Shown here piece by piece: positions 37,593 through 64,000 of a DNA stretch of 64,000 nt. Each line of letters begins with the position of its first letter. Position 1 is the first letter of the stretch. Source of the stretch: Prorocentrum cordatum (lineage: Eukaryota); assembly GCA_963575745.1 (NCBI GenBank), contig CAUYUJ010000314.1:248001-312000 (forward strand), read 5' to 3'. A model generated the notes under the pieces. The model did not search any database, was not told the origin of the DNA, and worked only from the letters and a program-made list of their open reading frames with translations. The translations under genes were made by a program, and so were the position numbers.

Positions 37593-38005
37593 GGATGATA
37601 ATGATGAAGCAGTTGATTATATATGATGATGATGCTGATGATGATGATGATGATGATGAGGAGGAGGAGGAGGATGAGGAGGCGGAGCAACTGGCTTGAT
37701 TTAAGGCGAAAATAGGTTGAGTCGGTTGAGTGTTTTTATGTTTTTTGATGGTTTTTGATGCCGACGACGATTGTAATGATGGTGGCTATCAAATCGTAGT
37801 GCTGATGGTGGTGGCGATGGTGATGGTGATGATGGTGGTGCTCATCACATCCAGAATCACCATCATCACCATCACCATCATCACCATCACAACCGCCCTC
37901 ACCATACCATCATCACCATCCCCATCATCATCATCATCCTCATCATCATCATCATCATCAGTATCATCATCACCATCCATACCATCAGCATCGCCATCAC
38001 CATCG

Positions 38006-38050
<45 letters not shown>
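36120..38050. repeat. (GAT)/(GAG)/(CCT)/(CAT) low-complexity region with short unique islands
   Basis: Direct inspection. Confidence 0.85.
37184..37228 (+). CDS. Candidate 45-nt host exon (VRLNAAFRSMPTRTQ)
   Basis: AG|G acceptor, CAG|GA donor, 15 codons, in a unique island amid microsatellite. Confidence 0.25.
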
Positions 38051-38051
<1 letters not shown>

Positions 38052-38056
38052 TAGGA

Positions 38057-38067
38057 CTTGGCTCAAG
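38057..38067 (+). other. DinoSL 3' relic upstream of the transposase ORF
   Basis: TTGGCTCAAG equals the last 10 nt of DinoSL and ends 30 nt before the ATG. Confidence 0.65.
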
Positions 38068-38096
38068 CGGACCGCGGACGACGACATTATTAAATA

Positions 38097-40874
38097 ATGT
38101 CGTCGTCCGCTGGGGCGGTTTCCCCGAGCCCTCCAGCCTCGTCGTCCCCTCTTTTTTCGAGGGCAGCTTCGCCGAGCCATCCTTCTTCTTCGAGGGCAGC
38201 TGCTTCGCCGAGCCCTGCTTCTTCTTCTTCAAGGGCAGCTTCGCCGAGCCCTGCTTCTTCTTCGAGGGCAGCAGCTTCGCCGAGCCCGAGCCCGAGCCCT
38301 GCGGCCGCGTCGAGGGCAGCTTCGCCAAGCCGTGGCAGCTGCAACAACTCGGACGCAGAATCGGCCGTGGCAGCTGCAACAACTGCCGTGGCCGCTGCCG
38401 ACGCAGCGGGCTCCGAAGAGGACAGCGGCTCCAACAGCGGCTCCGACAGCGGCTCCGGAGAGGACAGCGGCTCCAGCAGCGAGGCAGCCGCGGCTGCAAG
38501 AGCGAAGGCGAAGGCCGCCCCGAGCAAAGTAGTCGAGAAGTTCCCGCCTTCGTTGCCCATGACCCTGGAGGAGCACGTCGCCAGCCACGACTACCCAAAG
38601 CACGTCTCCACCTGCGGCGCTTGCAGATTTTGGAAGAACAAGGAGAAATGGAGCTCCTCGATGTCTGCGACGAATCCAGTAACACTGAAGAGTGAAACTT
38701 GGATAGGCTGCGTTGGTGGTAGATTTGCAGTCTGCTTGTCCTGCTCGGCGTTCAAGGGCGTTCGCTGCATTTCCACCATAGGCCAGGGATCCGCGAGTTT
38801 CCAACGCAAGGAAAACCTCGTGCGCCATGCACAGTGCGAGGAGCACCAGGCAGCAGAAGCGGCGTGGAAAGAGCGGATTCGAGCGGAAGGTGCGCACCAG
38901 GGTCTCCCCGTGTCTGTGTTCTCCACAACGGCTGCATCAGCTGCAGCAGCTGCAACAGCCGTGGCGCCTGCGCCCGCCGTCGTCCGCAACGCCGACCAGC
39001 GCCCTGGTTGCCGCGCAGTGGTCGCCACCCGTGCAATGTTGGAGACAAGCAGTTCCTTCAGTAGTTTCGACGTGTGGCGGGGTGCGTTCGTTGGGGGCGA
39101 CCGCCAAGTTTTGGAGTCTAGTCGGCAGTGCCGAAGGTTGGTGACCACCATGGCTCAGCACGAGGAGATCATCACGCAGAGGATCCTCAGACATGGTGCT
39201 GTTTTTCGTTTGGCTGCGGGCGGCCTCGACCGCGCGCGCCAGGTCGAAATTGGCACCGCGCTGTGGTCGATCCCGAAGGCTTTGGACTTCCTCCCAAGCT
39301 ACGGTCTCCAGGCAAGCTGGTTGGAACAGCTGGGCCCCAGAGGGCCCTGGATCGTGGATCGGGTGATCGGGATGCGGGAGTTCCCGCGGGACATGGGCTG
39401 CGACGGCAAGGCTTCCATGCTGGAGGAGTGCGTCCGTCGCGCGTGCCATGCGGCAGGCGGGGAGGTGGACGGGGACTTGCACAAGCATGTGCGACAGGAG
39501 ACTCGGGCATGGCGCAGCGATGGGGCGGATCTAAGTGTACCCACCATGGCTGCAACAACTACGTTCCCTGGGCTGAAGTTTCACGCGTGGGACGAGTCAC
39601 ACTCGCCCCAGAAGGTTCTGGCCAATTCGATGAAAGGAGACAGCGAAATAACGACCACGGACGAGCTGCTGGTAACGGGTAAGAAGCCGACAAGTCTGGC
39701 CAAGTTCCTGACTACCTCCACCGTGTTCCGCAACACATTCGGGAAGCAGCAGCTGGTGGAAGACGACGTTACGTTCGTCAAAATTTTCGGCTGGGCCCCC
39801 CAGCGTTTCAACAGTCGGGCGAGGCCCTATGCACGGGAAAGTCGGCGTTGGGAAGCCATTTCCGAGGCGCTCGCAGCGGAGTCCCAGGGGAATGACAAAG
39901 ATCGGCGCATTCTCGCCCGACATATTCTGGAAGGGCTCGGAGGCGAGAACAGTTCGCGCCTGCTCCTGGGGGGGTTGCTGGCCGGCTTGAGCGCGGAGCA
40001 CTACTCCTGGGTCGCGACCGGAGTCAAGAGCAACCCCGACGCTGCCAGCGTTCCATCCAGGGCAGCCGCTTTCCTCTCCAAGCTGGATACATTGTTCGTC
40101 AAGGGGAATATTCTGGCCACCCCCGACACGTTTACTGGCGTCACCCTCAAGTTTCTGAAGGTCACGAGGCGGTTCATGTGCGGCACTGGCGTCCAGACCG
40201 TTGGTATCGGCGATCGGAGCACGGGGCCCCGAGCCCGCGTAGCCGTCCACGCGGCTCTTCGACGAGTGCAGGGTATCGTGGCCAATGTGATGAAGAAAAT
40301 GAAGCTATATCGGCCAGAGCATTCTTGGTTGCACGCCTTTACAGCCTTTCGCTTGCCTTCCCCCCTGTCCCTGTCTGCAACAGCAGAGCATGCACCAGAA
40401 GCCGAGGCCTGTTTGAAGCGCATCTGCCAGGCGGCAGACCTCCCCGAGCAGAAGGCAATCTCCCAGCTGCGGCAAATGTTGCCCCGTGCCGAGGATCATC
40501 ATCATCGAAACGGGGGCGCCGCGCGGCAGGCTTGGGGCCGCGCTGCGGTGGAGTGGCCCGAGCTCCACAGCGGCCGTCGCCTCGTGGAGCTCTTCCTTGT
40601 ATGGAAAACGAGCACGGGCAACTTGGAGAGGCGATTCCGCCGTTTCTCGGAGATGAATTGCCCCGAGAGGGCGCGGCTCCTCGACGTGTCCGTCGAGGAG
40701 TGCACGCTCGTGGACCAGGCGCCCTCCAGCAGGTTGCTGCGCGCGTGGCTGGACGGCAACGACGGGAGCAGCTCTGCCGCCAGTCGTTGGTGCAGCCATG
40801 TGCTCAAGCTACATGAGTTCGCGCAGGGGAAGATAGCGCGCGGGAGCTTGGGACAGCACGTCGGACAGAGGTAG
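38097..40874 (+). CDS. hAT-like transposase (925-aa ORF, probably inactivated)
   Basis: S/A-rich N-terminal repeats, TTF-like Zn finger (W..CLSC...F..KENLVRH..CEEH), FRLAA(G)G at the expected first Asp, SDGA, WDESH, QRFNS and STGNLERRF, in hAT order. Confidence 0.75.
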   Translation: MSSSAGAVSPSPPASSSPLFSRAASPSHPSSSRAAASPSPASSSSRAASPSPASSSRAAASPSPSPSPAAASRAASPSRGSCNNSDAESAVAAATTAVAAADAAGSEEDSGSNSGSDSGSGEDSGSSSEAAAAARAKAKAAPSKVVEKFPPSLPMTLEEHVASHDYPKHVSTCGACRFWKNKEKWSSSMSATNPVTLKSETWIGCVGGRFAVCLSCSAFKGVRCISTIGQGSASFQRKENLVRHAQCEEHQAAEAAWKERIRAEGAHQGLPVSVFSTTAASAAAAATAVAPAPAVVRNADQRPGCRAVVATRAMLETSSSFSSFDVWRGAFVGGDRQVLESSRQCRRLVTTMAQHEEIITQRILRHGAVFRLAAGGLDRARQVEIGTALWSIPKALDFLPSYGLQASWLEQLGPRGPWIVDRVIGMREFPRDMGCDGKASMLEECVRRACHAAGGEVDGDLHKHVRQETRAWRSDGADLSVPTMAATTTFPGLKFHAWDESHSPQKVLANSMKGDSEITTTDELLVTGKKPTSLAKFLTTSTVFRNTFGKQQLVEDDVTFVKIFGWAPQRFNSRARPYARESRRWEAISEALAAESQGNDKDRRILARHILEGLGGENSSRLLLGGLLAGLSAEHYSWVATGVKSNPDAASVPSRAAAFLSKLDTLFVKGNILATPDTFTGVTLKFLKVTRRFMCGTGVQTVGIGDRSTGPRARVAVHAALRRVQGIVANVMKKMKLYRPEHSWLHAFTAFRLPSPLSLSATAEHAPEAEACLKRICQAADLPEQKAISQLRQMLPRAEDHHHRNGGAARQAWGRAAVEWPELHSGRRLVELFLVWKTSTGNLERRFRRFSEMNCPERARLLDVSVEECTLVDQAPSSRLLRAWLDGNDGSSSAASRWCSHVLKLHEFAQGKIARGSLGQHVGQR

Positions 40875-40909
40875 GCTTCGGGCGCAGGCGAGCAGCTGCC
40901 GTCGACGCC

Positions 40910-41805
40910 ATGGTGGCCGCTTCCCCGAGCAAGCGCGCCCGCCTTCTCGCGGAGGGCGCCCCCGATCTCGCTGCGCTGGCTCAGGGGGCGGCCCAGGCGA
41001 GCGGCGCAGATCCAGTCGGGCCCGCTGCAAAAAACGTCGCCGCCGTCGCCAAGCGGGGGGCCAGGATCCGAGAGCGCAATCTTGGGGGGGCGAAGGCCGC
41101 CGCCAAGGCCAGGAGTACCCGAGAGAAGAAAGTCCTGCGCAGTAGTGCCAGGCCAGCTGCGGGCCGTGACGCTTGCTTGCTGCCCCCCCCCCGCGTCCCG
41201 CTGGGCTCATGCTGGCTCGCATGGTAGATGAGGGCGCTCGCAAGAAGGCGCAGCGCTTGCGTTTCAAGGTGTTTCAGGACCCCGTGGAGTTCCTGGACTA
41301 TCTTGCCAGTCATACGGCCCAGGGGAAGAAGAAGGGGAACGTAGTCTTGGCGCCAACAGCTGACACCGACTATTGCATCGCCGCCCAGATCGTAGCAGCG
41401 TTCACGGGAGTTTTTTTCACAGCGCCGGCTGACTTTGCACGGGAGGATTCTCCAAAAGGCATCCAGTACACGGAGAAGCTTCGGAACTCGAGCAAGAGCT
41501 ACCACGTGGCTGTAACAGAGGCTCTCGCGGCAGACCTGCCTACGCTGCCCCGCGTTTTACGAGCGCTTGCACAGACGCCGAGTGGGTGTGTGATCTATTA
41601 CAAGAGCCCCAAGAAGCTCTGCAAGTTCTTCAAGAGGCAGGCCAATCCCCGCCTGGCGCAGCGAACTTGCGTGCTGTGCCGCTCGGGAGAAGAAGCGGGT
41701 GTTGACAGTGCTGTTAAACAGCTCTACAACAGCCCGAGGAACTGGGTGCTGCGTTTCGACGCGACGGTCGCAGCACTGTGCCCAGGCACCATGGCCGTGC
41801 CATAG
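40910..41805 (+). pseudogene. Frameshifted C-terminal extension of the transposase, or a downstream ORF of unknown function
   Basis: Protein-like ORFs 40910-41227 and 41173-41805 overlap across a C-run near 41184. Confidence 0.55.
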
Positions 41806-42106
41806 TTTGTTGAAAAAGAGCGCCGCCCAACGTCGTCCGACCTTACCTCCCCCCCTGCGCCCCTCAGTGGGCGCCGCTGCCGCGGGCGGCGCTGCCCGCC
41901 GCTGGGGACCTGAAGGTCGCCGATGGGGGGGGGGGGGCTGCTGTTGCCCGTGGCGGCGGTTGTCGGCGGCGAGGGTGGGAGGGCGGGGGTGGGAAGCATC
42001 GGGCGCCCAGGGCCGCCCTCAGGAGGAGGGGGATGAGGGGGGTGATGGGGCTGAAGGAGGAGGGGGGAGCAGGACGAGGCAGGAGCAGCGACGAGGCCGT
42101 CTTCCC

Positions 42107-42353
42107 CGCTGCAACATCCGCTGCAACAGCCGCTGCAACAGCCGCTGCAACAGCCGCTGCAACAGCCGCTGCAACAGCCGCTGCAACAGCCGCTGCAACA
42201 GCCGCTGCAACAGCCGCTGCAACAGCCGCTGCAACAGCCGCTGCAACAGCCGCTGCAACAGCCGCTGCAACAGCCGCTGCAACAGCCGCTGCAACAGCCG
42301 CTGCAACAGCCGCTGCAACAGCCGCTGCAACAGCCGCTGCGACAGCCGCTGCA
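42107..42353 (+). repeat. (GCTGCAACAGCC)n 12-bp minisatellite, ~20 units
   Basis: Near-perfect tandem array. Confidence 0.97.
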
Positions 42354-42529
42354 GTAGTAGAGCACACCCAGCTTTCCTGTAGCGCAAGCACCTCGGCTCA
42401 AGGCATTTCTTGCAGCGCCTGCAGGCTGCCATGCCAGAGATGGGGCGCAAGGGCAAGGGCAAAGGGCGCCAGGTCAGACCAGCCAAATCTGGGCTAGCTG
42501 TAGTACCCCCCCCCCCCCCCCTGTCTGAT

Positions 42530-42810
42530 AAGAGCTCCCATGGAGCTCTAACATGCCATGTTAGAGCTCCCATGGGGCTCTAACATGGCAGGTTAGAGGA
42601 TGTTAGAGCTACATTGGAGCTCTAACATGCCATGTTAGAGCTCACCTGGAGCTCTAACATGGCATGCTACATGATGTTAGAGCTCACAGGGAGCTCTACC
42701 ATGCCATGTTAGAGCCCCAGCGGCATGCTCTAGCTCTAACATACCATGTTAGAGCTCCCATGGAGATCTAACATGGCATGCTAGAGCTCCCAGTAGTGCC
42801 ATGTTAGCAA
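42530..42810. repeat. Palindromic ATGTTAGAGCTC satellite, short block
   Basis: Alternating GAGCTCTAACAT and ATGTTAGAGCTC. Confidence 0.9.
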
Positions 42811-42815: not shown

Positions 42816-42884
42816 ACGTCTAACTTGATATGTTACACCTCCCTGGGGATACCCCAGGGAGGTGTAACATATCAAGTTAGACGT
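42816..42884. other. Perfect 33-bp-arm palindrome
   Basis: ACGTCTAACTTGATATGTTACACCTCCCTGGGG-ATA-reverse complement. Confidence 0.95.
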
Positions 42885-43029
42885 CGAATTGTACTACAGC
42901 TCCTCCAGTTTTGGCTAGTAGGAGCTGCGTGGGAGCTCGAACATGGGATGTTAGTAGAGCTCCCATCTTCAGGTCGGCAGCTGGGAGTACTTGCTCAATC
43001 ATCGCAAAGGCTTGCGGAGCCAGAGGGAG

Positions 43030-44749
43030 CGGTACGCTGGCGCGTCAGGAGGGCGAACACGATGAGGTGTTGGATCATGAGCGCCGCCTGCGCTGGGTCC
43101 AACATAAGCAGCAGCAGTTGGACTATGACGGCATGATGATCTTCGACCGTCCAGGAGTCTGGGAGGGCCAGGAGAGACCCTACGGGTGCCTGGACGCGAC
43201 CGCACATAGGCAGTTGAGCGACGAGGAGATCAGGTGGAACACTCCTATGATCGACTGGGAGCGTCGGAACCCGCCACGGGCGACTGGGATCGAAGACTGT
43301 GCACGGTACCACTGGGATCTGCATATTTGGCAGCGGCGCCTGTCAAACGCCCAGAGTCGCCAGAGAGAGGCGTCGCCGCGCCAGCGCCAGTTGGCTGCAA
43401 CAGCGTCATCAAGCGGGCGGCGGGCCCAGGCCGAGCAGTCGGGTGATCCGCACCACGCGATTGTGATCTCCGACAGCGACTCCCCCCGAGAGGCTGGTGA
43501 CCGTACCCGCAGAGGCAGAGAGCGCACCCGCAGCACGGCGCGGGATGTTCCTGTCACGGCACGGCGCGGGATGGGTGCTCCTCTCGCATCTCCGCTTCGG
43601 CAGGAGGAGGATGATTGGAGACAAAAGACTCCGTGGGCCAAGCACGCGGCAGCGAAGAGGGTCAGTGACGCGCCCGCGGAGGGCCAGCCTCTTCCGAAAC
43701 GGATGCCCTCCCGCCCGCCACGGCCAATCGATTTATCGGGCAGGGTCGCGCCGCCGCCGCCGCCGATGGCGAGAGCGCAGCTGCGGCAAGAGGCGGGCCA
43801 CTACAAGCCCGACCCAGAGGGAGCGCACAAGGAACACATGGAGGCTGCTGAGCGGCGCCAGCTCTTATCCCAGGCCCCACGTGGGTCAGCCGCACGGGCG
43901 ACGACGGTTTCTTCTTCTGCCACCATGATGAAGCGCAGCGAGGAGCCTATATAGCGCGGGAAACTTCTTACGCGGCAGGCGGAACATACGACGAAGAATG
44001 CCCGCATAGCTGCAAGAGCCATGTCAGCCTTCCCGCTGCGTGCAAAGGTCGGTCAGACGGCGGAGCAGTCCAAAGGTTACACGTCCATCGCCAAGTTGCC
44101 CCCCGAGGAGGCCGCAGTCGTCGAGCAGAGCAAGCCGAAGCGCCTTCCACCCTTTGTTTTGTCGTCCCCGCACGAGGCCATTCCCGTGTTCCACAAGGAC
44201 TGGACGCTGGTCGAGGACTGGATGCTGGAATTAAAGCTGCGGGCAGAGAGGAACAATATGATACATGAGTACCTCCTAGCCGGCTTCCCCGTGTGGTGCC
44301 CGAGCTCGGGAAACTCCATGTGGCCTCTGGTGCGATCGCACGACTTCTGCACCTTTCACCCCATCCAAGCTGTAACAGCGGAAGCGGGCCCTGGCTGCGT
44401 CGTGAAGGAGGCGTCCATCGTGCAGAAAGGAGACATCGTCTTCTGCCTGGTGCAACCGCAGCACCAATACTACGCGCACATTGTGGTCAAGGCAGATTGG
44501 GACTCCCACAGGCGCGAGTACAAGTACTGGATCGGCAACATCAGGCAGAACATACATGGCTATTGTTTCAGGGAGCACATCTTCGGGATCCTCGTGGACG
44601 TGCAGGTGCAGTACCATGGCAACTACTACAGTCGCCCGCACCCAAAAACGCTGTACGACAGAGTCGCGCTTATTTATTACACGAACCCTGGCGAGGCAAT
44701 GCAACTCTGTGAGCCTCGGTGGGAGCAGCCCGCGTCTGGGAGCAGCTGA
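43030..44749 (+). pseudogene. Unknown N-terminal region plus peptidase S24/S26-like domain; single in-frame TAG at 43952-43954
   Basis: ORFs 42911-43954 and 44021-44749 share a frame with 22 open codons between them. The C-terminal part has SSGNSMWP, GDIVFC and YYAHIVV. Start position uncertain. Confidence 0.65.
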
Positions 44750-44960
44750 CAGCTTGCACAGACTGTCGCAGTAAATCGCGGGGCCTCTCCGAGCGCGCTT
44801 CTGGTAGACTGCAACAGTCGACTGCGACACGCCAGTTCTGGTTTAGGCATTGCTTCTGTCAGCGCCAGTTTTGGCCGACCTGCACAGATGCGCCTCTCAG
44901 ATGAGCCCTGCCTTCCGCTATGCAACAGATACGCACACAATTCGAGTACGCGGCACCCTC

Positions 44961-45614
44961 GCACACATTTCGAGTGGGGTCGTGGGCGGCTAGCATGACT
45001 GCTGAACACCGCAAGTTCTCGAGCGCCTGACCCAGTCGGCGAAGTGCTTCCAGTCGCGTCGGGTGGTGACTGTCTGTCAGATACCCTTCGGCGCGGGTGG
45101 CCTGACCTTTGCCTTATACTGTAACAGTGGCACGCCTGTGCGGCCGCCCGCATGCGCTTTGACGCTGTGCGGACTGGGTTTGTCTTGCGGTTTTCCTTGA
45201 TGCTGAGCCGGCTTGGCTGCACGACTGAGGTGTGTGTGTGTTTGTATATGATTAGCACACATCAACACGAAGTACATGTATTGTGTGTGGTATTGTCCTC
45301 TCGTGCGTCTCATCTTAGGAGCGTGCCACTCGTTCAGGGACCCTGGCTTCCAGCTCGCTGGCCTCAGGTTGCCGGTTGACTTACTCAGGGGGATGGCAGT
45401 GGTGCGGGGAATGGGAAGGGGCTGGGATGGGGACGGTTGCGCGGAATCGGCAGAGTCTTTGTGGCCAGCGCTCCGCTGCAACAGCCGCGCACATTTCGAG
45501 TGGGGTTGTGGGCGGCTAGCATGACTGAACACCGCAAGTTCTCGAGCGCCTGACCCAGTCGGCGAAGTGCTTCCAGTCGCGTCGGGTGGTGACTGTCTGT
45601 CTGTCAGATACCCT
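44961..45614 (+). repeat. ~125-bp direct repeats (44961-45087 and 45487-45614)
   Basis: CACATTTCGAGTGGGG...CTGTCAGATACCCT is duplicated with small indels. Confidence 0.85.
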
Positions 45615-46328
45615 ACGTCTGACAAAACGGCGAGCTTCTCCGACTCGTCTCCTCTCGCCGTCTGCTGCGCCTCCGCTGCAACAGCTCCTGCGCCTCCCCG
45701 CCCCCCCGGTCCCTGGTGGCGGCCGGCGCTGCCGCGGGCGGCCGCGGCGCCCCCGCAGGCCCGCGTGGGGGAACCAGGATGGCGATGACGAGGAGGACGA
45801 GGCTAGGAGGAGGAGCAGGAGGAGGAGTCCAGGTGGGAGGAGGGGGGTGGAGCGCATCACGCTCTGAGCTAAGGTGCCCGCGAGAGCATTTGCTACTGGC
45901 GCGAGTGGGAATGGGCCCACGATAGGACTCTGCGCATGTGCTGCGCATGGCTGGAACAGCGAGCGCAGGCGCTCCCATGCATCCCTGAGCTCAGAGATGA
46001 GGAGAAAGACGCACATATTCAGATCAACTGCATTCCTTATTATGCAGATTGTCTCACCCTCCAGGCCGCTAGGCGCTAGGCGCTTGGATGCTTGGGCTGC
46101 CTGGTTCGAATTGATCTAGCCTCTAGCCTTCGGCTGTCTGGTGCCCAGTGCCTCCCTGGTCGCCACCAGCTGGGCGCAGCAAGCGAGGAGGAAGAGGCCA
46201 CCAGAGAGGGCCCTAGGGCCCTAGGGCACCACGCCCAGGACCCCGCAGAGCCCCGAGCACCCCAGCAGATCCGCGACAGGATTCGCATCCTTACATCATC
46301 TTGGCATATTGGCCCAAGCTAGTTCCCC

Positions 46329-47552
46329 ATGGCTGGGGCAAGAGCCATGGGGGATCCTTTATTCAGCACCTCATCCCAGGGGTCTCCCAGCGCGGACTCG
46401 CAGTCGGTGTCTGCCTGCCTTCTGCGAGACATGTTTGGCGGCTCGGATGACGAGGCCACTGAAGGTGCGACGCTCTATGTTGAAGCCAGAGTTGCCGTGG
46501 ACGTTCGGACCGTGGCCGCCGCCGCTGCGAGTCCGCAGCAAGCCAACCAGGGAGGTTTTGCAGCGGGCGTGGGCGCCGCTGGCGGCGCCCACAGAGCAGC
46601 GCGAGATCCAGACAGCATCGCTTCCTCCAGACATAAGGGCTTGCAAGAGCCGTCGGCATCGCCTCCAGAGATCAGGGCCTGCGAGATCCAGACAGCATCG
46701 CCCTCTCCAGCACAGGTGCATCCAGCATCAGCATCGTCGCTTCCTCCAGGGAGCGTCGGAGACGGCGGAGCAGCTCGAGGGCCTTGCGGCGTGAACGTGA
46801 AGGTCACGGTCATGGCCAATGACACCATCAGCGCCGATGGCATGGGCAATGGGAACAACGGCATATTTTCGTTCATCACAGATCGCCTGGGGCTCGACCT
46901 TTCACGCGGGGGGCCGCCTACCGACGCTGTCGAGGGCCGAGCAGGATGCGGCGACGGTGGCGACAAGGGCTCTGGAGTTCGGAGCCCGAGGGCCTTTGCA
47001 GGGGTCGATGGCGGCAGCGCATTTCAGTTCGCGAAGGTCGCCTGTTTCGACGACAACGGCAACAGAGTGACAGCGCCTGCCAGGCGTCGCATGCGCTCGC
47101 GCAGCCGAGAGACGCGGCTTAAGATGATGCGGGAGGGCGCCCGGGAGGACGCTCGACAGGTGCCTAGTGATTGTCGCGACATGCAATCGATGTTTGTACA
47201 CCAGCCCCTCGTCGACATCGACGTTGGTCTAGTGATGAAGCGCGTGCGGCACCTCCACGATCGTGCCATCGCCTCTGGGCTCTCCGTCTACATCGGCACG
47301 ACGAGCGACCCTTCATGGCGATGGAATGGAGGATGGGGGTGGCGAGGAAACGACCGAAGCTTCATGCGCGGGCACAAGCTCAGCTACGATGAGATGCAAG
47401 TGGTCGCGTCCTTCCCCGACAAACAATGCGGAGAGGTTGAGAAGCATGTGATCGCGCACTTCCCCCGTGCTGACAACAAGGTCGCGTCGCAGCAGGGGCT
47501 TGCGGTCAGGCACTGCGCATGCAGCTTCCTATATGTCTGTAGGACATTATGA
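46329..47552 (+). CDS. Protein with disordered N-terminus and C-terminal GIY-YIG-like nuclease domain
   Basis: VYIGTTSDP..RW...H...EVEKHVI...DN matches the YIG, Arg, His, Glu, Asn order. SL-like relics CATCTTGGC and CATATTGGCCCAAG lie at 46297-46318. Confidence 0.6.
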   Translation: MAGARAMGDPLFSTSSQGSPSADSQSVSACLLRDMFGGSDDEATEGATLYVEARVAVDVRTVAAAAASPQQANQGGFAAGVGAAGGAHRAARDPDSIASSRHKGLQEPSASPPEIRACEIQTASPSPAQVHPASASSLPPGSVGDGGAARGPCGVNVKVTVMANDTISADGMGNGNNGIFSFITDRLGLDLSRGGPPTDAVEGRAGCGDGGDKGSGVRSPRAFAGVDGGSAFQFAKVACFDDNGNRVTAPARRRMRSRSRETRLKMMREGAREDARQVPSDCRDMQSMFVHQPLVDIDVGLVMKRVRHLHDRAIASGLSVYIGTTSDPSWRWNGGWGWRGNDRSFMRGHKLSYDEMQVVASFPDKQCGEVEKHVIAHFPRADNKVASQQGLAVRHCACSFLYVCRTL

Positions 47553-47671
47553 GCGCCATTTGCGAAGCTGCCCAGCTCCGCTGTCTTGTGCGTGCAGTGG
47601 CCACTACCCAGACGTGGTACGTGGTGGGGACGACTGAGGCTGCGATGCAGAAGTGACAGAATCGCCAGTAC

Positions 47672-48242
47672 GCTGCAACAGCCGCTGCAACAGCCGCTGC
47701 AACAGCCGCTGCAACAGCCGCTGCAACAGCCGCTGCAACAGCCGCTGCAACAGCCGCTGCAACAGCCGCTGCAACAGCCGCTGCAACAGCCGCTGCAACA
47801 GCCGCTGCAACAGCCGCTGCAGCCGCTGCAGCCGCTGCAGCCGCTGCAACAGCCGCTGCAACAGCCGCTGCAACAGCCGCTGCAACAGCCGCTGCAACAG
47901 CCGCTGCAACAGCCGCAACAGCCGCTGCAACAGCCGCTGCAACAGCCGCTGCAACAGCCGCTGCAACAGCCGCTGCAACAGCCGCTGCAACAGCCGCTGC
48001 AACAGCCGCTGCAACAGCCGCTGCAACAGCCGCTGCAACAGCCGCTGCAACAGCCGCTGCAACAGCCGCTGCAACAGCCGCTGCAAAAGCCACTGCAACA
48101 GCCGCCGCAACAGCCGCTGCAACAGCCGCTGCAACAGCCGTTGCAACAGCCGTTGCAACAGCCGCTGCAACAGCCGCTGCAACAGCCGCTGCAACAGCCG
48201 CTGCAACAGCCGCTGCAACAGCCGCTGCAACAGCCGCTGCAG
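47672..48242 (+). repeat. (GCTGCAACAGCC)n 12-bp minisatellite, ~48 units
   Basis: Near-perfect tandem array. Confidence 0.97.
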
Positions 48243-54944: not shown

Positions 54945-56280
54945 GTTAGAGCCCCCATGGGTGCTCCAACATCGTATGTTAGAGCTCCAGTGGATTTTTA
55001 ACATAACCTTTCATCCTATGTTAGAGCTCCCTGGGGGGGGGGCTCTAACATCGTATGTTAGAGCTCCGTGGGAGCTCTAACGTGCTATGCTTGAGCTCCC
55101 AGGGAGCCCTAACATAGCAAGTTATTAGCGTATGTTAGAGCTCCCTGGGGACTCTAACATGCTATGTTAGAGCTCCCTGGGAGCTCTAACATCGTATGTT
55201 AGAGCTCCCTGGGGGCTCTAACATCGTATGTGAGAGCTCCAATGGAGCTCTAACATAACATGTTCCAGTATGTTAGAGCCCCCTGGGAGCTCTAACATGG
55301 TTTGTTAGAGCTCCGTGGGAGCTCTAACATTGCTTGTTAGAGCTCTAACGGAGCTCTAGCATAGCATGTTCGAGTATGTTAGAGCTCCAACGGAGCTCTC
55401 ACATAGCATGATCGAGTATGTGAGAGCTCCCTGGGAGCTCTAAGTTGGTATGTTAGAGCTCCGTGGGAGCTCTAACATGGCATGTTAGAGCTCCAACGGA
55501 GCTCTAACATAGCATGTTCGAGTATGTTAGAGCTCCCTGTGAGCTCTAACGTGGTATGTTAGAGCTCCGTGGGAGCTCTAACATGGCATATTAGAGATCC
55601 AACGGAGCTCTAACATAGCATGTTCCAGTATGTTAGAGCTCCCTGGGAGCTCTAACATGGCATGTTAGAGCTCCAATGTCGCTCTAACATAGCATGTTAT
55701 ATTGTGTTAGAGCTCCCTGGGAGCTCTGACATCGTATGTTAGAGCTCCGTGGGAGCTCTCACATGCTATGTTAGAGCTCCCAGGGAGCTCTAACATAGCA
55801 AGTTCGAGTTTGTTAGAGCTCCCTGGGAGCTCTAACATGCTATGTTAGAGCTCCCTTGGAGCTCTAACATCGTATGCCAGAGCTCCAATGGAGCTCTAAC
55901 ATAGCATGCTATATTATGTTAGGGCTCCCTGGGAGCTCTAACATCGTATGTTAGAGCTCCGTGGGACCTCTAACATAGCATGCTAGAGTATGGTAGAGCT
56001 CCCTGGGGGCTCTAACCACATTGTATGTTACAGCTTCGTGGGAGCTCTAACATAGCATGTTCGAGCTCCATGGGAGATCTAACATGCCATGGTAGAGTCC
56101 CACGGGGGCTCTAACATCGCATGTTAGAGCTCCACGGGAGCTCTAACATCTTATGTTAGAGCTCCCAGGGGGATCTAACATAGCTTGTTCGAGCTCCCTG
56201 AAGCTATTCTAAAATGCCATGTTAGAGCTCCCTGGGAGCTCTATCATGCCATGCTAGAGCTCCCTGGGAGCTCTACCATG
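54945..56280 (-). repeat. Palindromic satellite, reverse-oriented array
   Basis: Linkers read CCTGG, CGTGG, CAACG and AGCATGTTCCAGT, the reverse complements of the forward arrays. Confidence 0.95.
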
Positions 56281-56459
56281 TGAGGGAAATCGATCAACGA
56301 AGGGGGATCCCTCAAATCGCCCTGCCCCTCGGGAACCCACAAAATAGCCTCCTGGACCCCTCTTGGTTCCATTGATCAGATCACGCAGCTTTCCTGTAGC
56401 GCAGGCACCTCGGCTCAAGGCATCTCTTCTTGCAGCGCCTGCAGGCTGCCTTGTCAGAT

Positions 56460-57230
56460 ATGGGGGCCAGCGCAGGGGGGGGGCCTGGCCCATGTCCAGA
56501 CACCGTCATCATGGACCCTGACACTGGACACATTGATGCGCCATGGCTAGAAGTTCGCGAGTACGTTTCGAAGAAGAGTGGGGAACCTAAGGAGCCCTGG
56601 TGGTTTTGTTGACCGTGCGAGAAATGGGCAGCCCCGACGCGCCAGATTCCGGCGGACCACATCAAGAATGTAAAGAATATGCATCTCTGGTGGCATAATG
56701 CTTGTCCACAGGGTCCTGATGAGGAGAAGGCCGCATGGTGCTCGAAGATCATGAACACTGTGGTGCTCCACTCGAGCTACGCCCCGAAGCGGAAAAACGT
56801 TGAAGCGGATGATTGGAGGTCGTCGAAGAAGCCCAAGTGGCAATGGCAAAATGAAGGCCGTCAGCAAGAAGTTGGAACAGCTGCAGGAGAGAACACCTTG
56901 AAAAGCTGGAACAGCTCAAGAGCTGCGTCATCATCAGGAGCTGCAGCAGCAGGATATGCAACAGCAGGAGCACAGCAGTGGCAGCATAAGCTTACGCAGC
57001 AGCAGCAGCAGGGCGGGCTCGATATCACCGTTATCACCTCGATGCTCCATTTCTTGACCAGCGCTTTTCCACACCTTATGACACATAACAACGTGGCCGA
57101 GAAGATTGATCAGATTCTGGACCTCCTGCGGGCGCAGGGACAGGCGCTCCAGGACCTGCAGAAGAAAGTCGAGGAGCTCGATCAGAAAGTGGAGGAGCTC
57201 AAGCAGCAGGACAAGAAGGAGTGCCAGTGA
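56460..57230 (+). pseudogene. Zn-finger/coiled-coil protein, copy 2 (in-frame TGA at 56610-56612)
   Basis: Colinear with 48380-49108 (MDPDTG.IDAPWL, WWFC*PCEKWAAPT, ACPQG.DE.K.AWCS) and shares both UTR-like flanks. Confidence 0.75.
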
Positions 57231-57349
57231 GCTCAGCAGCAGGACAAGTGACCTCGCATGGGCGTCTGGTAGCCGATGTCGGAGGCGCGCAGCCTGGCTC
57301 GCGCGCTGGCTCTTTCGCCGCGCTCGCGCGGTGCGCCCGTGCAGCGGGC

Positions 57350-57498
57350 CAGCGAATTCGAAAGAATAACAGATGTATGGGGTTCTGCGTCTAGTAGGAC
57401 TGAAACAATGAGTGCGTTGAAGACTGGGATCTCCTCTTGACGCCTTGAGGGGCGAGGAATTTCTGGCAATCTCTCTTGGGGCCCTTAGGGTGGTTAGA
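57350..57498 (+). repeat. Dispersed ~140-bp repeat (second, longer copy at 63525-63715)
   Basis: ATAACAGAT.TATGGGGTTCTG...GGGATCTCCTCTTGACGCC.TGAGGGGCGAGGAATTTCTGGCAATCTCTCTTG is shared. Confidence 0.85.
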
Positions 57499-58034
57499 TG
57501 ATGTTAGAGCTCCAGGGAGCTGTGACATGACATGTTAGAGCTCCAACGGAGCTCTGTCATAGCATGTTGTTAGATTATGTCAGAGTTACTTGGGAGATTT
57601 AACATATGAAAGTCGGCGGTGCGTGGGGGGCGGTGAAGCCTTCATCCTCCTCCTCCTTCTCCTCCTCCTCCTCCTCCTCCCCACCTTCAAGTTCTAATTC
57701 GGAAGTCCCTGAGCCCCCTCCGCCCCTGATCCCCGGCCGCGCCCCAGGGGGCAAGGCCGCCCCGCGAGGGCTGGGAGGGCCGCGCCCTATTCATGTTTCA
57801 CCGTGGTCGAAGACAGGGCCCCACCCCCATGTTTCACCGTGGCCGAAGACAGGGCTTCAAGGGGGAAGCCTTCGTTCTCGAGGTCGAGGACGGGGCAACG
57901 GACGGTGAGTGCGACCTGCCGCCGTGTTCGGACATGTTTCCTTACTTATGCGCGCTTAAAAGGAGGGGGGTGGGGGGGCCGATGGGGCGACGACGACGAT
58001 GACGACGACGACGACGACGACAACGACGGGGCGG

Positions 58035-61000
58035 CTCGATGGGGGCTCTAACATGCTATGCCAGAGCTCCCATCGAGCTCTAACATAGCATGTTAGAGTT
58101 CACAACCCTCACATCGAATCTAACATAACACGTTAGAGCTCCCAAGGAGCTCTTACATATGTTAGAGTTCCATGGGAGCTCTAACATGCCATGATAGAGC
58201 TCCCAGGGAGCTCTAACAACATCCTAGGTGAGAGCTCGAGGCGAACATGCCATGCTAGAACTCCCTGGGGGCTCTAACATGCCATGTTAGAGCTCCCAGG
58301 GAGCTCTAACGTGCTCGAACATGCTATGTTGAAGCTCCGTTGAAACTCTAACAAGCCATGTTAGATCTCCCACGGAGCTCTAACATACCATGTTAGAGCT
58401 CCCAGGGAGCTCCCACTGAGCTCTAGCATGCTATGTTAAAGCTCCGTTGGAGCTCGGTATTTTAGAGCTCCCAGGGAGCTCTAACATGGGAGCTCTAATA
58501 GAGCATGTTAGAGCTCCCTGGGAGCTCTAACATACTCGAACATGCGATGTTAGAGCTCCGTTGGAACTCTAACAGGCCATGTTAGAGCTCCCACGGAGAT
58601 CTGACATACCATGTTAGAGCTCCCAGGGAGCTCTAACATACTGGAACATGCTATGTTAGAGCTCCCATGGGGGCTCTAACATTCTCGAACATGCTATGTT
58701 AGAGCTCCGTTTGAGCTTTAACATGCCATGTTAGAGCTCCCAGGGAGCTCCCACTGAGCTCTAACATGCTATGTCAAAGCTCCGTTGGAGCTCGGTATTT
58801 TAGAGCTCCCAGGGGGCTCTAACATGGGAGCTCTAATATAGCATGTTAGAGCTCCCAGGGAGCTCTGGCATACTCGAACATGCGATGTTAGAGCTCCGTT
58901 GGAGCTCTAACAAGCCATGCTAGAGCTCCCACGGAGCTCTAACATAGCATGTTAGAGCTCCCAGGGAGCTCTAACATACTGGAACATGCTATGTTAGAGC
59001 TCCGTTGGGCTCTAACATGCCATGTTAGAGCTCCCACGGAGCTCTAACATAGCATGTTAGAGCTCCCAGGGAGCTCTAACATTCTGGAACATGCTATGTT
59101 AGAGCTCCCAGGGAGCTCTAGCGTACTGGAACATGCTATGTTAGAGCTCCGTTGGGGCCTCTAACATGCCATGTTAGAGCTCGCAGGGAGCTCCCACTGA
59201 GCTCTAACATACTATGTTAATAAAGCTCCGTTGGAGCCCGGTATTTTAGAGCTCCCAGGGAGCTCTAACATGGGAGCTCTAATATAGCATGTTAGAGCTC
59301 CCTGGGAGCTCTAACGTACCCGAACATGCTATGTTAGAGCTCCGTTGGAGCTCTAACAAGCCATGTTAGAGCTCCCGCGGAGCTCTAACATAGCATTTTA
59401 GAGCTCCCAGGGAGCTCTAACATATTGGAACATGCTATGTTAGAGCTTCGTTGGAGCTCTGACATGCCATGTTAGAGCTCCCACGGGGCTCTACCATACC
59501 ATGTTAGAGCTCCCAGGGAGCTCTAACCTACTCGAACATGCTATGTTAGAGCTCCGTTGGAGCTCTAACAAGCCATGTTAGATCTCCCAGGGAGCTCCCA
59601 CTGAGCTCTAACATGCTATGTTAAAGCTCCGTTGGAGCTCGGTATTTTAGAGCTCCCAGGGAGCTCTAACATGGGGGCTCTAACATAGCATGTTAGAGCT
59701 CCCAGGGAGCTCTAACATACTGGAACATGCTATGTTAGAGCTTCCAGGGAGCTCTAACATACTGGAACATGCTATGTCAGAACTCCGTTGGAGCTCTAAC
59801 ATTCCATGTTAGAGCTCCCACGGAGCTCTAACATACCATGTCAGAGCTCCCAGTGAGCTCTAACATACTGGACCATGCTATGTTAGAGCTCCGTTGGAGC
59901 TCTAACAAGCCATGTTAGAGCTCCCACGGAGCTCTAACATACCATGTTAGAGCTCCCAAGGAGCTCTAACATACTGGAACATGCTATGCTAGAGCTCCGT
60001 TGGAGCTCTGACATACCATATTAGAGCTCCCACGGAGCATTAACATGGCATGTTAGAGCTCCCAGGGGGCTCCGACTGAGCTCTAACATGCTATGTTAAA
60101 GCTCTAACATACTGAGCTCCGACTGAGCATCTCAGAGCTCCCTGGGAGCTCTAACATACTCGAGCATGCTATGTTAGAGCTCCGTTGGAGCTCTAACAAG
60201 CCATGTTAGAGCTCCCACGGAGCTCTAACATACCATGTTAGAGCTCCCGGGGAGCTCTAACATACTGGAACATGCTATGTTAGAGCTCCGTTGGAGCTCT
60301 AACATGCCATGTTAGAGCTCCCACGGAGCTCTAACATACCATGTTAGAGCTTCCAGGGAGCCCTAACATACTCGAACATGCTATCTTCGAGCTCCGTTGG
60401 AGCTCTAACATACCATGTTAGAGCTCCCAGGGAGCTCCCACTGAGCTCTAACATGCTATGTTAAAGCTCCGTTGGGGCTCGGTATTTTAGAGCTCCCAGG
60501 GGGCTCTAACATGGGATCTCTAATATAGCATGTTAGAGCTCCCAGGAAGCTCTAACATATTCGAACATGCTATGTTAGAGCTCCGTTGGAGCTCTAACAA
60601 GCCATGTTAGGGCTCCCTGGGAGCTCTAACATACCATGTTAGAGCTCCCAGGGAGCTCTAACATACTGGAACATGCTATGTTCGAGCTCCGTTGGAGCTA
60701 TAACATGCCATTTTAGGGCTCCCACGGAGCTCTAACATACCATGTTAGAGCTCCCAGGGAGCTCTAACATACTCGAACATGCTAGGTTAGAGCTCCGTTG
60801 GAGCTTTAACAAGCCATGCTAGAGCTCCCACGGAGCTCTAACATGCCATGTTAGAGCTCCCAGGGAGCTCTAACATACTGGAACATGCTATGTTAGAGCT
60901 CCGTTGGAGCTCTAACGTGCCATGTTCGAGCTCCCACGGAGCTCTACCATATCATGTTGGGGCTCCCAAGGAGCTCTAGCATACTCGAACATGCTATGTT

Positions 61001-61980
61001 AGAGCTCCGTTGGAGCTCTAACAAGCCATGTTAGAGCTCCCACGGAGCTCTAACATACCATGTTAGAGCTTTCAGGGAGCTCTAACATACTCGAACATGC
61101 TATGATAGAGCTCCGTTGGAGCTCTAACATACCATGTTAGAGCTCCCATGGAGCTCTAACGTACTCGAACATGCTATGTTAGAGCTCCGCTAGAGCTCTA
61201 ACAAGCCATGTTAGAGCTCCCACGGAGCTCTAACATACCATGTTAGAGCTCCCAGGGAGCTCTTACATACTGGAACATGCTATACTAGAGCTCCGCTGGA
61301 GCTCTAACATACCATGTTAGAGCTCCCATGGAGCTCTAATATACCATGTTAGAGCTCCCAGGGAGCTCTAACATACTGCAACATGGTCTGTTAGAGCTCC
61401 GTTGGAGATCTAAGATACCATGTTAGAGCTCCCGCTGAGCTCTAACATAGCATGTTAGAGCTCCCAGGGAGCTCTAACATACTCGAGCATGCCATGTTGG
61501 AGCTCCCAGAGAGCTCTAACATACTGGATCATGCTATGTTAGAGCTCCGTTGGAGCTCTAACTTATCATGTTAGAGCTCCCACGGAGCTGTAACATACCA
61601 TGTTAGAGCTCCCAGGGAGCTCTAACGTACTCGAACATGCTTTGTTAGAGCTCCGCTGGAGCTCTAACAAGCCATGTTAGAGCTCCCACGGAGCTCTAAC
61701 TTACCATGTTAGAGTTTCCAGGGAGCTCCCACTGAGCACTAACATGCTATGTTAAAGCCCCGTTGGAGCTCGGTATTTTAGAGCTCCCAGGGAGCTCTAG
61801 CATGGGAGCTCTAATATAGCATGTTAGAGCTCCCTGGGAGCTCTAACATGCTATGTTCGAGCTCCCTGGTGGCTCTAACCTACCCGCCGCCGCCGCCGCC
61901 GCCGCCTCAGAGCTCCCAGGGAGCTCTAACATAATCTAACATACGATGTTAGAGCTCCATTGGAGCTCTAACATACGATC
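58035..61980 (+). repeat. Palindromic ATGTTAGAGCTC satellite, forward array
   Basis: Same units and linkers as 50277-53180. Confidence 0.97.
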
Positions 61981-62287
61981 GGATTCTCGGGCCCTGGCTG
62001 TCGACTCCCGTCGGGAGGGCCGAGTGGTCGAGGGGCCTCCCGACGGAGGGCCCTTGCAGATGAGTCATCGTGCGGCGTTCCCCGACGGTCCGACGGTCTC
62101 CCCCGTGGCCGGTGGCCCATGGCCCGTGACCCGTCGTCGTCGTCACCGTCCGTCGGCGTCGCTGCCTCAGCCTCAGCCGTCTGCAGTGCGAAGGTCCAGT
62201 GTTTCGGCTGTACTCCTCCCCAGCCTGAGCAGGCGACCCCCCCCCGCCTCGGACTCAGGCGTCGACGCGGCGTCGACGCTCGCCGCG

Positions 62288-62989
62288 ATGGCCGCGATGG
62301 CAGCATCGGGGCCGTCGACGACTCATCACATCCAGCTCCAGCTTCGTGTGACCATCAATGGAGATGATGGAGTCGTGGTGGGCGGTGTGACCATCAACAA
62401 TGGAGATGGAGTCGTGGTGGGCGGCGGCGGCGACGACCAGCGCGCCCCGGGGGCCGCCGCCGTGTTCCAGCATGCGTTTCATGTGCCAGCTGCTGGTGGT
62501 GGTGGCGCTGCGGCCGCAGGCCCTGTGGGCGCCGCTGCAGCTCCGGGTGGCGCAGGGGCCGCACTCCCACTCCCACCCCCAGCACTTCCTGTCGCTGCCG
62601 CTGGGCAGCCTTCTCCTGTCGCTGCGCAGCCTGGGCAGCCTGGGCTGCCTCCACCGGCGCCGGCGGGGCAAGCCTTGGAGGTGCCCGAGGGGTCTGAGGC
62701 CAACGAATTCGGCTGGCCAGCCACTGCGCCGTGGATCGCACCGCACTTCCGCCGGATCTTGCCCCTCGCGGCTGGCGCGCTCGGGTACCACAGCAGCCAC
62801 GTGATGGCCCGCTATCGCAGCGTTGACATCTGCACCGTATGCGGCGGCTTCTCTGAGCGTGTATGTTCCAGGAAGCTCTGCGCGCCCTGTTCAGGGATCC
62901 GCAGTGATCACTATGGCAGGCGCAACCTTCTTCACATGCGCGTCGGCCACCACCCCAAAACTAACCGCGATTTTGCGGGCTGCTACTAA
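62288..62989 (+). CDS. A/P/G-rich protein with C-terminal Cys/His domain (HxSH..CxxCG..KLxxPC..GHHP)
   Basis: Open frame with a clustered Zn-binding pattern, reminiscent of C-terminal Zn domains of non-LTR retroelement proteins. No RT is present. Confidence 0.5.
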   Translation: MAAMAASGPSTTHHIQLQLRVTINGDDGVVVGGVTINNGDGVVVGGGGDDQRAPGAAAVFQHAFHVPAAGGGGAAAAGPVGAAAAPGGAGAALPLPPPALPVAAAGQPSPVAAQPGQPGLPPPAPAGQALEVPEGSEANEFGWPATAPWIAPHFRRILPLAAGALGYHSSHVMARYRSVDICTVCGGFSERVCSRKLCAPCSGIRSDHYGRRNLLHMRVGHHPKTNRDFAGCY

Positions 62990-64000
62990 CGTGGTGAGGG
63001 CCCGCCACGCGCCGCGCGCTGGAGTAAATGGAGGGAGGAGGGGTGGGGGGAGATGGGGGCGAGGCGATATGATCAGAGATTTTGACGACCGCGACGACGA
63101 CCGTGACGACGACGACGACGCGACGACGACCCGACCCGACTCGCCCTTAATCCTTAGGCCTCATCTGCATTCTGTGCCCTGCAGGACGCCGCCCCCGCGG
63201 CTGCTTCCCACGGTCCGTCGGCCCGATGCCACGCGCGCGCTCCATGCGAGGCCGCGTGGGCTGCAGCATGCGCGCCGTCTCATCCCCCGCCCCGCAGCGC
63301 GCGCCCCCCCCCCCCCACTGGCACCACTGGACGTTTGCGCAAGTGTCGGGCTTATGCCGATCGGATCAACGCCCCATGGCTCCAGGGCCCCCCAGGGCTC
63401 CCCCCCCCCGACTACATGAATTATCCGACGCTGTCCGCCGCGAGGGCGGGGGGGGAGGGGGGGCGCGCTGTAGCTGTTCTCTGTTCTATCGGCTAGCGCA
63501 GTCAGTCGAAACCTTCGGCCTGGCAGCGAATCTCGAAAGCATAACAGATTTATGGGGTTCTGGATCTACTAGGACTCAAAAAATGAGTGTGTTGAAGATT
63601 GGGATCTCCTCTTGACGCCCTGAGGGGCGAGGAATTTCTGGCAATCTCTCTTGAGGCCCTGTGGGGAGATAGAATTTCTGGGATCTCCTCTTGAGGCCCT
63701 TAGGGTAGTTAGAATTTCTTGGTGCCGTTGGGGTCTTGCAAAATCTCTGGGCCCACCCATCAAGAGCTGGTAGGCCATCTGGGGAGAACTCGACAGGCTC
63801 TTGGCGCCCTCGCTCGCTGAAAATGCATTAATCTTCGCATTGCTTCGAGGGAATGGGCGACTTCCGACATCCGTGAGTTCGTCTAGAATTGGTTGCGGCT
63901 ATTTTCGCTCTGCTTCCTATCCGCCCTCTGGACGTTCCATCGGCTACAACGGCCCCTGTTCTTCCATCATTGCCCAATTCCATTCCCACCGCGGCTCCAG

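Follow-up and report, generated by a model that had tools for sequence, protein, structure and literature searches.

Retrogenes of dinoflagellates that carry relics of the spliced leader (SL) were reportedly first described by Slamovits and Keeling (2008). The literature on these retrogenes (DinoRL) reports 477 of them in Prorocentrum minimum (PMC12014239, PMC5585692, PMC6050394). In P. cordatum, most genes are unidirectional and dispersed duplicates constitute 64.8% of genes, and single-exon genes are common in dinoflagellates (PMC10666404). Transposons of the hAT superfamily are 2.5-5 kb long, with terminal inverted repeats (TIRs) of 10-25 bp and target-site duplications (TSDs) of 8 bp (PMC3942097). 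Here we describe a stretch of 64,000 nucleotides of the P. cordatum genome (contig CAUYUJ010000314.1, positions 248,001 to 312,000 of the forward strand), termed the window, which holds from 38 kb on an island of genes, A to D, that the initial annotation had taken for a single cargo-bearing element driven by a hAT transposase. The region is best read as ordinary repeat-rich dinoflagellate nuclear DNA, not as one transposon, and comprises four unrelated “dark” gene families that follow one another in the same orientation on the + strand, interspersed with arrays of a palindromic satellite. It is reasonably likely to have arisen through retroposition, the duplication of a block, growth of the satellite and decay, in a genome in which genes of the same direction are normal.

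Gene A would have been retroposed through its mRNA from a multi-copy, probably hAT/Buster-derived family and would then have decayed. The block formed by genes B, C, D and D′ would have been copied as DNA at least once more, by segmental duplication, and the D-type unit, which comprises a minisatellite, a leader and an open reading frame (ORF), would have given rise to three local copies, one of them a stump. The same-strand layout would be that of the normal unidirectional, trans-spliced gene arrays of dinoflagellates. The gene structures and their defects, the SL relic of gene A, the recurrence of the block and the absence of transposon ends were observed directly and are described below.

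Gene A and its spliced-leader relic

Homologues of 1,119-1,292 aa span three frames of gene A, with tblastn alignments running in frame 3, then in frame 2 from ~40859 and in frame 1 from ~41185. Since the homologues align across all three frames, ORF1 and ORF2 constitute one gene with two frame changes. A search with ORF1 revealed 81 related protein clusters (40-75% identity, mostly 1,000-1,290 aa, on contigs of 2-6 kb), and the extra C-terminal ~200 residues of these relatives correspond to ORF2, which forms a conserved domain. Gene A is colinear with its transcript-sized homologues (P0001, P0002, P0003, P0005 and P0277), for whose contigs an RNA origin is assumed, and displays no intron-sized gaps, the frame shifts being the only breaks. 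Contigs of four public sequencing runs (X1, X2, X4 and X5) were mapped on positions 38060-42100, which contain gene A only, and 354, 33, 572 and 130 contigs per run, respectively, aligned at 90-100% identity. Gene A thus belongs to a multi-copy family. Summed contig depth falls past ~41840 in three runs and was not used as evidence for a 3′ end of the repeated unit.

The SL relic of gene A is located ~30 nt 5′ of the ATG, immediately after an (ATC)n array. In three of the four runs (X1, X2 and X5), contigs of other A copies present a fuller relic that abuts the leader sequence and comprises the leader’s first six bases, a short middle stretch that is altered, and the 3′ part seen in the window. 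On the 5′ side of the relic, the window, with its (ATC)n array, and the mapped contigs are unrelated. The start of gene A at an SL relic points to arrival through RNA, not by cut-and-paste, and the altered form of the relic, common to several copies, indicates that DNA-level copying of an old retrocopy also took place. At least gene A is, as judged from these features, a probable SL-tagged retrocopy. A check for poly(A) remnants revealed only a run of five A 8 nt past the gene A stop and a run of seven A past the stop in L001, a metagenomic locus with an A relative of 70% identity. Enrichment of SL relics was dropped as a statistic, as the 3′ 9-mer of the leader is not enriched in the window and its count lies below expectation (8 found versus 22 expected, with at most one mismatch).

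Between the SL relic and the ATG lies a perfect palindrome (38074-38110), in which the opening bases of gene A recur in inverse orientation, and the mapped contigs of other A copies diverge from the window exactly there; these copies seem to be devoid of it. Trinucleotide arrays of the GAT/ATC type extend just 5′ of the gene, at 34284-35237, 36151-36792, 37472-37677 and 37856-38051.

The window copy of gene A carries several defects. At 40834/40835 it is missing 37 nt found in other A copies, a stretch across which contigs of X2 and X5 join and at which those of X1 and X4 show loose ends. The second frameshift sits in a run of C (41185-41194). Seven of the 127 columns conserved at a level of at least 95% deviate in gene A, other members of the alignment deviating at 0-16. 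In particular, the Asp present at position 375 in 41 of 41 relatives is Gly in gene A (D375G), and Arg replaces a Tyr that is also found in 41 of 41. The ratio of nonsynonymous to synonymous substitution rates (dN/dS) against four relatives, from the closest to the most distant, is 0.53, 0.31, 0.17 and 0.15. These values suggest that the A family is constrained and the lineage of the window copy less so. Given the 37-bp deletion, the further frameshift and the replacement of an invariant Asp by Gly, gene A is predicted to be dead in the window.

A derivation of the A family from hAT transposons of the Buster group is quite likely, as a lead drawn from sub-threshold matches. The N-terminal zinc finger zf-C17orf113 was identified in 11 of 23 family members (best E 4e-7), and among 63 further members or loci it gave nine matches, all below the 29.5-bit cut-off. 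Dimer_Tnp_hAT (PF05699) matched one of the 23 members, at E 0.023, and none of the 63 further members or loci at E≤0.01. The language-model neighbours of A are the C17orf113, DUF4371, FAM200-ZBED5 RNase-like and Dimer_Tnp_hAT clusters (0.91-0.92), a mixed neighbour set of the kind that the tool’s own caveat treats as weak evidence; PF05699 is carried by 34-95% of the members of these clusters. Comparison of the gene A protein and three profiles with solved structures revealed no hAT chain and only chance-level matches. The invariant acidic residues of the family are D375, D475/D478 and an E844-type residue, and their spacing presumably resembles that of a D, D, E core with a long insertion. 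Relatives of A were absent from the viral contigs scanned.

The block of genes B, C, D and D′

A duplicated block is seen in P0275, a 1,734-aa P. cordatum gene model on another contig (783,665 bp) that matches B, C, D and D′ in this order (Table 1), with 77-90% identity over the main segments and 53-90% over the remaining pieces. Its first 309 and last 490 residues have no match in the window, and no A-like part was found in it, although a gene model could skip one. The same order in P0275 implies that B-C-D-D′ was duplicated as a unit. On a third contig (49,725 bp), P0155 displays a B-like part joined to a segment that matches 45258-45365 at 97% identity. On its left side, at ~42970, the shared block borders on a 69-nt perfect hairpin and the satellite.

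Of 22 metagenomic loci that hold a relative of A, none contains relatives of B, C, D or of the more distal ORF8, most flanks being short: they reach at least 1 kb downstream in 6 of the 22 and ~2.5 kb in two, and in the window 1.2 kb separate A from the start of B. The downstream ORFs differ between these loci, and frame changes are observed in 10 of the 22. L001 retains a 72-nt piece of the 3′ flank at 93% identity, and the locus ends in the same satellite as in the window, which lies ~1 kb downstream of its A relative. The 3′ flank of L001 also carries an inserted foldback hairpin and (CT)n run (3800-3880), with no counterpart at that place in the window. In L009, part of the A C-terminal domain is present again (6431-6790), 2 kb downstream of the first copy, and in L006 (~3463) and L012 (~4059) SL relics of a different gene lie downstream of the A relative, an arrangement that suggests retrocopies in tandem.

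In gene B, a disordered linker connects a conserved N-terminal region to an S24-peptidase-like domain at the C-terminus. ORF3 and ORF4 lie in the same frame, and homologues P0083 (349 aa) and P0279 (683 aa) align through the TAG between them, P0279 also covering the N-terminal region of ORF3; the two ORFs are thus one gene interrupted by a nonsense codon. Where this TAG stands, a P. cordatum gene model has Glu. Gene B is colinear with P0083 and P0279, the stop codon being the only break, and has no ATG at the start position of the 683-aa homologue. No SL relic was found for gene B. The best named relatives of both B and C are entries labelled “unnamed protein product [Prorocentrum cordatum]”.

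The B family (120 clusters) displays a conserved Ser motif, a GDIVF motif and a His motif; in its Gly-x-Ser-Met-x-Pro sequence, G97 and P102 are invariant and S99 and M100 are conserved at a level of at least 90%. Pfam Peptidase_S24 (PF00717) did not match the window protein and matched 6 of 48 family members below the cut-off (best E 0.04). The assignment came through viral proteins: ten loci in viral contigs (L025-L034) encode ~100-aa stand-alone relatives of the C-terminal domain of B, of which seven of the eight scanned pass the 23.3-bit cut-off of Peptidase_S24 (best 40.7 bits), and the B domain aligns with these proteins at an hhalign probability of 99.5% (E 3.9e-22). Since the viral intermediates match both sides, the S24 assignment of B holds at the level of fold or family. 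When the B family was compared directly with UmuD and LexA of E. coli, the Ser motifs aligned, without significance (hhalign probabilities of 1.4% and 0.1%, respectively). By our reading of the alignment, a conserved His occupies the site where the catalytic Lys is expected, both in the B family and in the viral proteins, and in the latter the Ser motif is invariant. The viral loci lie on contigs of 12-390 kb with neighbours that include a sigma factor and NAD-synthesis genes, and these neighbourhoods look like those of large phages. The gene B protein gave chance-level matches only against solved structures, and scans of the B and C families against PHROGs gave weak matches only.

Gene C is an open frame whose N-terminal half is of low complexity, and long low-complexity N-termini are also present in its relatives. 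A word-based search with gene C revealed one close relative, and an exhaustive search with its last 140 residues revealed 73 representatives at E≤0.001, 28 of which reach 1e-10. In an alignment of 39 sequences of this domain, Y54, G56, R64, H82 and E104 are invariant and N116 is conserved at a level of at least 90%. Tyr, Arg, Glu and Asn are catalytic-fold residues of GIY-YIG nucleases. Pfam GIY-YIG (PF01541) scores 13.7 bits on the window domain against a cut-off of 22.6 (E 0.082) and matches 9 of the 39 relatives (best E 0.0025), and the atlas neighbours of C include GIY-YIG (77% of members) and T5orf172/MUG113 clusters (0.94-0.95). The domain is a candidate GIY-YIG-like nuclease domain, as a lead only. 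Comparison of the gene C protein with solved structures gave chance-level matches only. A 14-mer 5′ of its ATG may be a decayed SL relic, an assignment held with moderate confidence; another SL-like stretch, also partial, stands before it, and by our own estimate about as many 15-mers with at most three mismatches are expected by chance in the window.

The protein encoded by the D ORF (242 aa) has a Cys/His motif and, at its C-terminus, a region that resembles a coiled coil. In the longer frame around this ORF (47657-49108), the 5′ 590 bases are translated minisatellite, and the real ORF starts at 48380. Its second copy, D′, has an in-frame stop (56610-56612) inside the CxxC motif, and dN/dS between D and D′ is ~1.3. 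The leaders of the D-type units contain an SL-like 14-mer with three mismatches. The similarity of the three leaders begins ~35 nt 5′ of this motif, which identifies them as DNA-level copies; for the same reason the motif was dropped as an SL relic. The gene D protein gave chance-level matches only against solved structures. Genes A, B, C and D all show coding-like patterns of GC content at third codon positions (GC3), with the exception of the N-terminal third of gene C. In ORF8, of doubtful coding status, the last ~95 codons contain a Cys-rich motif; no family or known relatives of ORF8 were found.

The initial annotation had described six or seven co-oriented, intronless genes, several with SL-like relics, embedded in a 12-bp minisatellite, perfect hairpins and a palindromic satellite. 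The long + strand ORFs and all of these repeats are present in the sequence. The ORFs collapse into four families (A being ORF1 with ORF2 and B ORF3 with ORF4); they do share one orientation, and colinear homologues bear out the lack of introns for A and B. As to the SL relics, that of A is convincing, that of C moderate, those of the D leaders weak, and B has none. Of the three zinc-finger modules proposed, one is an open copy, one has a stop in its CxxC motif and the third is a leader without a finger. The suggested families were reasonable, S24 being upheld through the viral intermediates and GIY-YIG-like and hAT-like standing as leads.

Repeats, hairpins and the remainder of the window

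The window has a GC content of 50-65%. Its first 37 kb contain only repeats and low-complexity ORFs, and convincing genes are found from 38 kb on. The long + strand ORFs extend over 38094-40874, 41170-41805, 42881-43954, 43955-44749, 46323-47552, 47657-49108, 56613-57230 and 61940-62989. Coordinates of the features are collected in Table 1.

Table 1. Features of the P. cordatum window and segments matched by gene model P0275
Feature	Position	Strand	Description
SL relic of gene A	38052-38067	+	last 10 nt exact (38058-38067), preceded by TAG
Perfect palindrome	38074-38110		centre 38092; 18-nt arms; fold z -9.6 (38070-38114)
Gene A (ORF1+ORF2)	38097-41805	+	one gene, ~1,240 aa, pseudogene copy of a family of ~1,100-1,290-aa proteins
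12-bp minisatellite, array 1	42106-42353		20.7 copies
Leader-only fragment of D-type gene	42354-42459	+	~105 nt, no coding part, no zinc finger
32-bp palindromic satellite, short array	42531-42793		
Perfect hairpin	42816-42884		69 nt, satellite-unit-related, 33-nt arms, -39.7 kcal/mol, z -16
Gene B (ORF3+ORF4)	42970-44749	+	one gene, in-frame TAG at 43952-43954
Possible decayed SL relic of gene C	46305-46318	+	2 mismatches in 14, 11 nt before ATG
Gene C (ORF5)	46329-47552	+	open frame; GIY-YIG-like C-terminal domain ~47130-47549
12-bp minisatellite, array 2	47671-48241		47.6 copies; directly 5′ of D leader
Gene D unit	48242-49216	+	leader 48242-48379 (138 nt), ORF 48380-49108, conserved 3′ piece to 49216
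32-bp palindromic satellite	49402-53156		higher-order periods 74 and 106 bp; extends to assembly gap
Assembly gap	53181-53280		100 N
32-bp palindromic satellite	55038-56280		
D′ unit	56382-57334	+	77% nucleotide identity to D; stop-bearing copy of the D ORF 56511-57230
32-bp palindromic satellite	57501-61879		
ORF8, doubtful coding status	61946-62989	+	coding-like GC3 in last ~95 codons only
P0275 on B	42970-44662		82% over main part
P0275 on C	46803-47543		90%
P0275 on D	48875-49078		78%
P0275 on D′	57027-57221		77%

The palindromic satellite amounts to ~9.6 kb in four arrays, and its 12-mer core has 397 matches with at most one mismatch, compared with 0.20 expected from shuffles. The 69-nt hairpin is located between the short satellite array and gene B. 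Rfam gave no match within the window, and the satellite is not present in the viral contigs scanned. In the literature, the 12-mer matched unrelated primers only, and no paper on a Prorocentrum satellite turned up. Array 1 of the minisatellite and the 92 nt that follow it share 95.6% identity with 47994-48333, and the spacer between B and C contains single units of the 12-bp motif as well. The assembly gap means that the right third of the region is joined to the rest by scaffolding alone. Adjoining this gap, between two satellite blocks, is a very homogeneous tandem array (53439-54559) of 7.4 copies of a 152-bp unit with 98% matches and no Rfam match. Dispersed direct repeats are observed in the spacer after gene B (44960-45090 and 45486-45617, 92.6% identity) and in the spacers after D′ and ORF8 (57350-57498 and 63524-63673, 88.7% identity).

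In the left part of the window, a near-perfect SL relic on the minus strand (20714-20734, one mismatch in 21) lies upstream of minus-strand ORFs (18434-20089) with a repeated unit of the Ser-Tyr-Glu-Gly-His type, from which it follows that gene orientation switches somewhere within 20-38 kb. A 2.15-kb unit is present in tandem duplicate at 23726-28300 (23726-26147 versus 25881-28300, 99.5% identity). Two further tandem repeat families each occupy two places, one of ~102-bp units, inverted (4849-6676 and 10436-11939), and one of ~89-bp units (8256-9382 and 29509-30369).

Alternative explanations and known systems

The order of events, and duplication instead of transposition as the mover of the block, are inferred, and several points weigh against the explanation preferred here. 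The recurrence of B-C-D-D′ and of the satellite beside the A relative of L001 shows real linkage, which a purely scattered model does not predict, and it leaves room for a mobile unit at the level of the block. The test of A neighbours is weak owing to the short flanks. The frames of C and D are open and could be those of working genes. The second frameshift of gene A might be technical, an assembly error in a homopolymer, and the hAT-like and GIY-YIG-like labels are leads drawn from sub-threshold matches and language-model neighbours. As for the linkage of all genes proposed by the initial annotation, the order B-C-D-D′ does recur on another contig, whereas A is missing from that gene model and has no such neighbours at any of its 22 loci, with the short flanks noted above.

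The alternative that survives best regards the B-C-D(-D′) cassette with its satellite as a self-propagating DNA unit of a kind not yet described, for example one spread by GIY-YIG homing, or a rolling-circle or other large element with core genes outside the window. Its appeal lies in a gene order kept on another contig at just 77-90% identity in the main segments, in the third contig with B plus a downstream piece, in the combination of nuclease-like, protease-like and Cys/His proteins, and in a left edge that lies beside the hairpin and satellite. GIY-YIG nucleases are, moreover, tied to the integration or homing of dinoflagellate polinton-like viruses (PMC12721341), and oyster Helentron elements can carry satellite-like arrays (PMC7492417). 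We nevertheless regard it as rather unlikely. Only two or three copies are known, for which plain segmental duplication suffices; B and D′ are broken in the window, and D and D′, to judge from their dN/dS, appear to evolve neutrally. No ORF matches a capsid, ATPase, polymerase, helicase, Rep or recombinase, the window is devoid of long terminal repeats, and relatives of C or D were not found in the viral contigs scanned. A related version, to which we give little credence, would make B-C-D with minisatellite and satellite an undescribed dinoflagellate multi-gene repeat that is propagated at the DNA level, perhaps through copying that a nuclease initiates into satellite prone to hairpins, with hAT-derived retrocopies landing in the same fragile DNA.

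It is also improbable that B, C, D and perhaps A form a working host cluster, functional, co-transcribed and trans-spliced, in which the defects stem from assembly errors or are circumvented. The frames of C and D are open, all four genes show coding-like GC3, and the A, B and C families are widespread in transcript-sized contigs, the A family being under purifying selection overall (dN/dS 0.15-0.31). One A frameshift does lie within the run of C, and the gene model P0082 skips, in an intron-like manner, the stretch with the TAG of gene B; two homologues, however, have a residue at this TAG and read straight on. The 37-nt gap of gene A is a real difference between copies and not a homopolymer error, and A has unique changes at invariant residues. 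Likewise, the stop of D′ falls within a metal-binding motif, and the dN/dS of ~1.3 between D and D′ argues against function.

The initial proposal, one large hAT-type DNA transposon with gene A as the transposase and B, C, D and the satellite as cargo, is very improbable. Gene A is probably hAT/Buster-like, every gene lies on one strand, B-C-D-D′ are found together elsewhere too and satellite lies downstream of the A relative in L001. Co-orientation is, however, the norm for this type of genome (PMC10666404), and the island measures 25 kb compared with 2.5-5 kb for hAT elements (PMC3942097). A scripted search for TIRs (at least 10 nt, at most one mismatch) with 8-bp TSDs (at most one mismatch), which would miss decayed ends, revealed no candidates around gene A and none around the island, and the only inverted repeats that flank gene A are trinucleotide simple-repeat arrays. 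The start of A at an SL relic indicates an RNA route, the gene is broken and has lost a family-invariant Asp, P0275 contains no A-like part, and none of the 22 A-bearing loci, whose flanks are short, has relatives of B, C, D or ORF8. An endogenous polinton-like virus was dropped as a candidate, as capsid, packaging ATPase, replication genes and long TIRs are all missing.

Retroposition with block duplication, satellite growth and decay thus remains the preferred explanation, and on this basis the region shows in one place how dinoflagellate genomes grow, through gene copies derived from mRNA, the duplication of blocks, expansion of satellites and rapid decay. First provisional identities are also obtained for three large unnamed protein families of marine plankton, a ~1,200-aa hAT/Buster-like, an S24-like and a GIY-YIG-like family. 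The S24-like domain of the B family is shared with large phages, and the hAT/Buster-like family bears an SL relic. Should the B-C-D block prove to be mobile as a whole, it would represent a new kind of mobile DNA, in a group with poorly described repeats. For the present, the region provides a well-documented case of known processes.

Comparison with described systems places the locus as follows. Like the endogenous polinton-like viruses of dinoflagellates, the window has a GIY-YIG-type gene in a multi-gene repeated block (PMC12721341). In contrast to them, none of its eight ORFs matches a capsid, packaging ATPase, polymerase/helicase or tyrosine recombinase in Pfam, and the TIRs of 230-860 nt described for these viruses (PMC12721341) have no equivalent in the self-comparison of the window. 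With Peptidase S24 proteins of the LexA/UmuD type, B shares the Gly-x-Ser-Met-x-Pro motif and is linked through ~100-aa viral proteins; it differs in the His at the expected Lys site and in the fusion of the domain to a long N-terminal region of eukaryote type. With the hAT Buster group and its domesticated relatives C17orf113, ZBED5, FAM200 and GTF2IRD2 (PMC3942097, PMC3606216), the A family shares a zf-C17orf113-like finger. Unlike them, it has no Pfam hAT domain above threshold and no TIRs or TSDs, and it possesses an extra conserved C-terminal domain of ~200 aa together with the SL relic.

The window resembles the unidirectional arrays and duplicates of P. cordatum (PMC10666404) in being same-strand, GC-rich and duplicated, with a second locus in the same order, and it departs from them in that three of five full gene copies (A, B and D′) are visibly broken and in that the genes are embedded in palindromic satellite. 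Gene A resembles the DinoRL retrogenes: it too has an SL relic just before the start codon, is intronless and exists in many dispersed copies. Its relic is internally altered, in a form common to several copies, and the retrocopied gene looks transposase-derived, whereas PMC12014239 has no occurrence of the word “transposase”. The relic of gene A and the contigs of its other copies fit dinoflagellate retroposition as described in that source.

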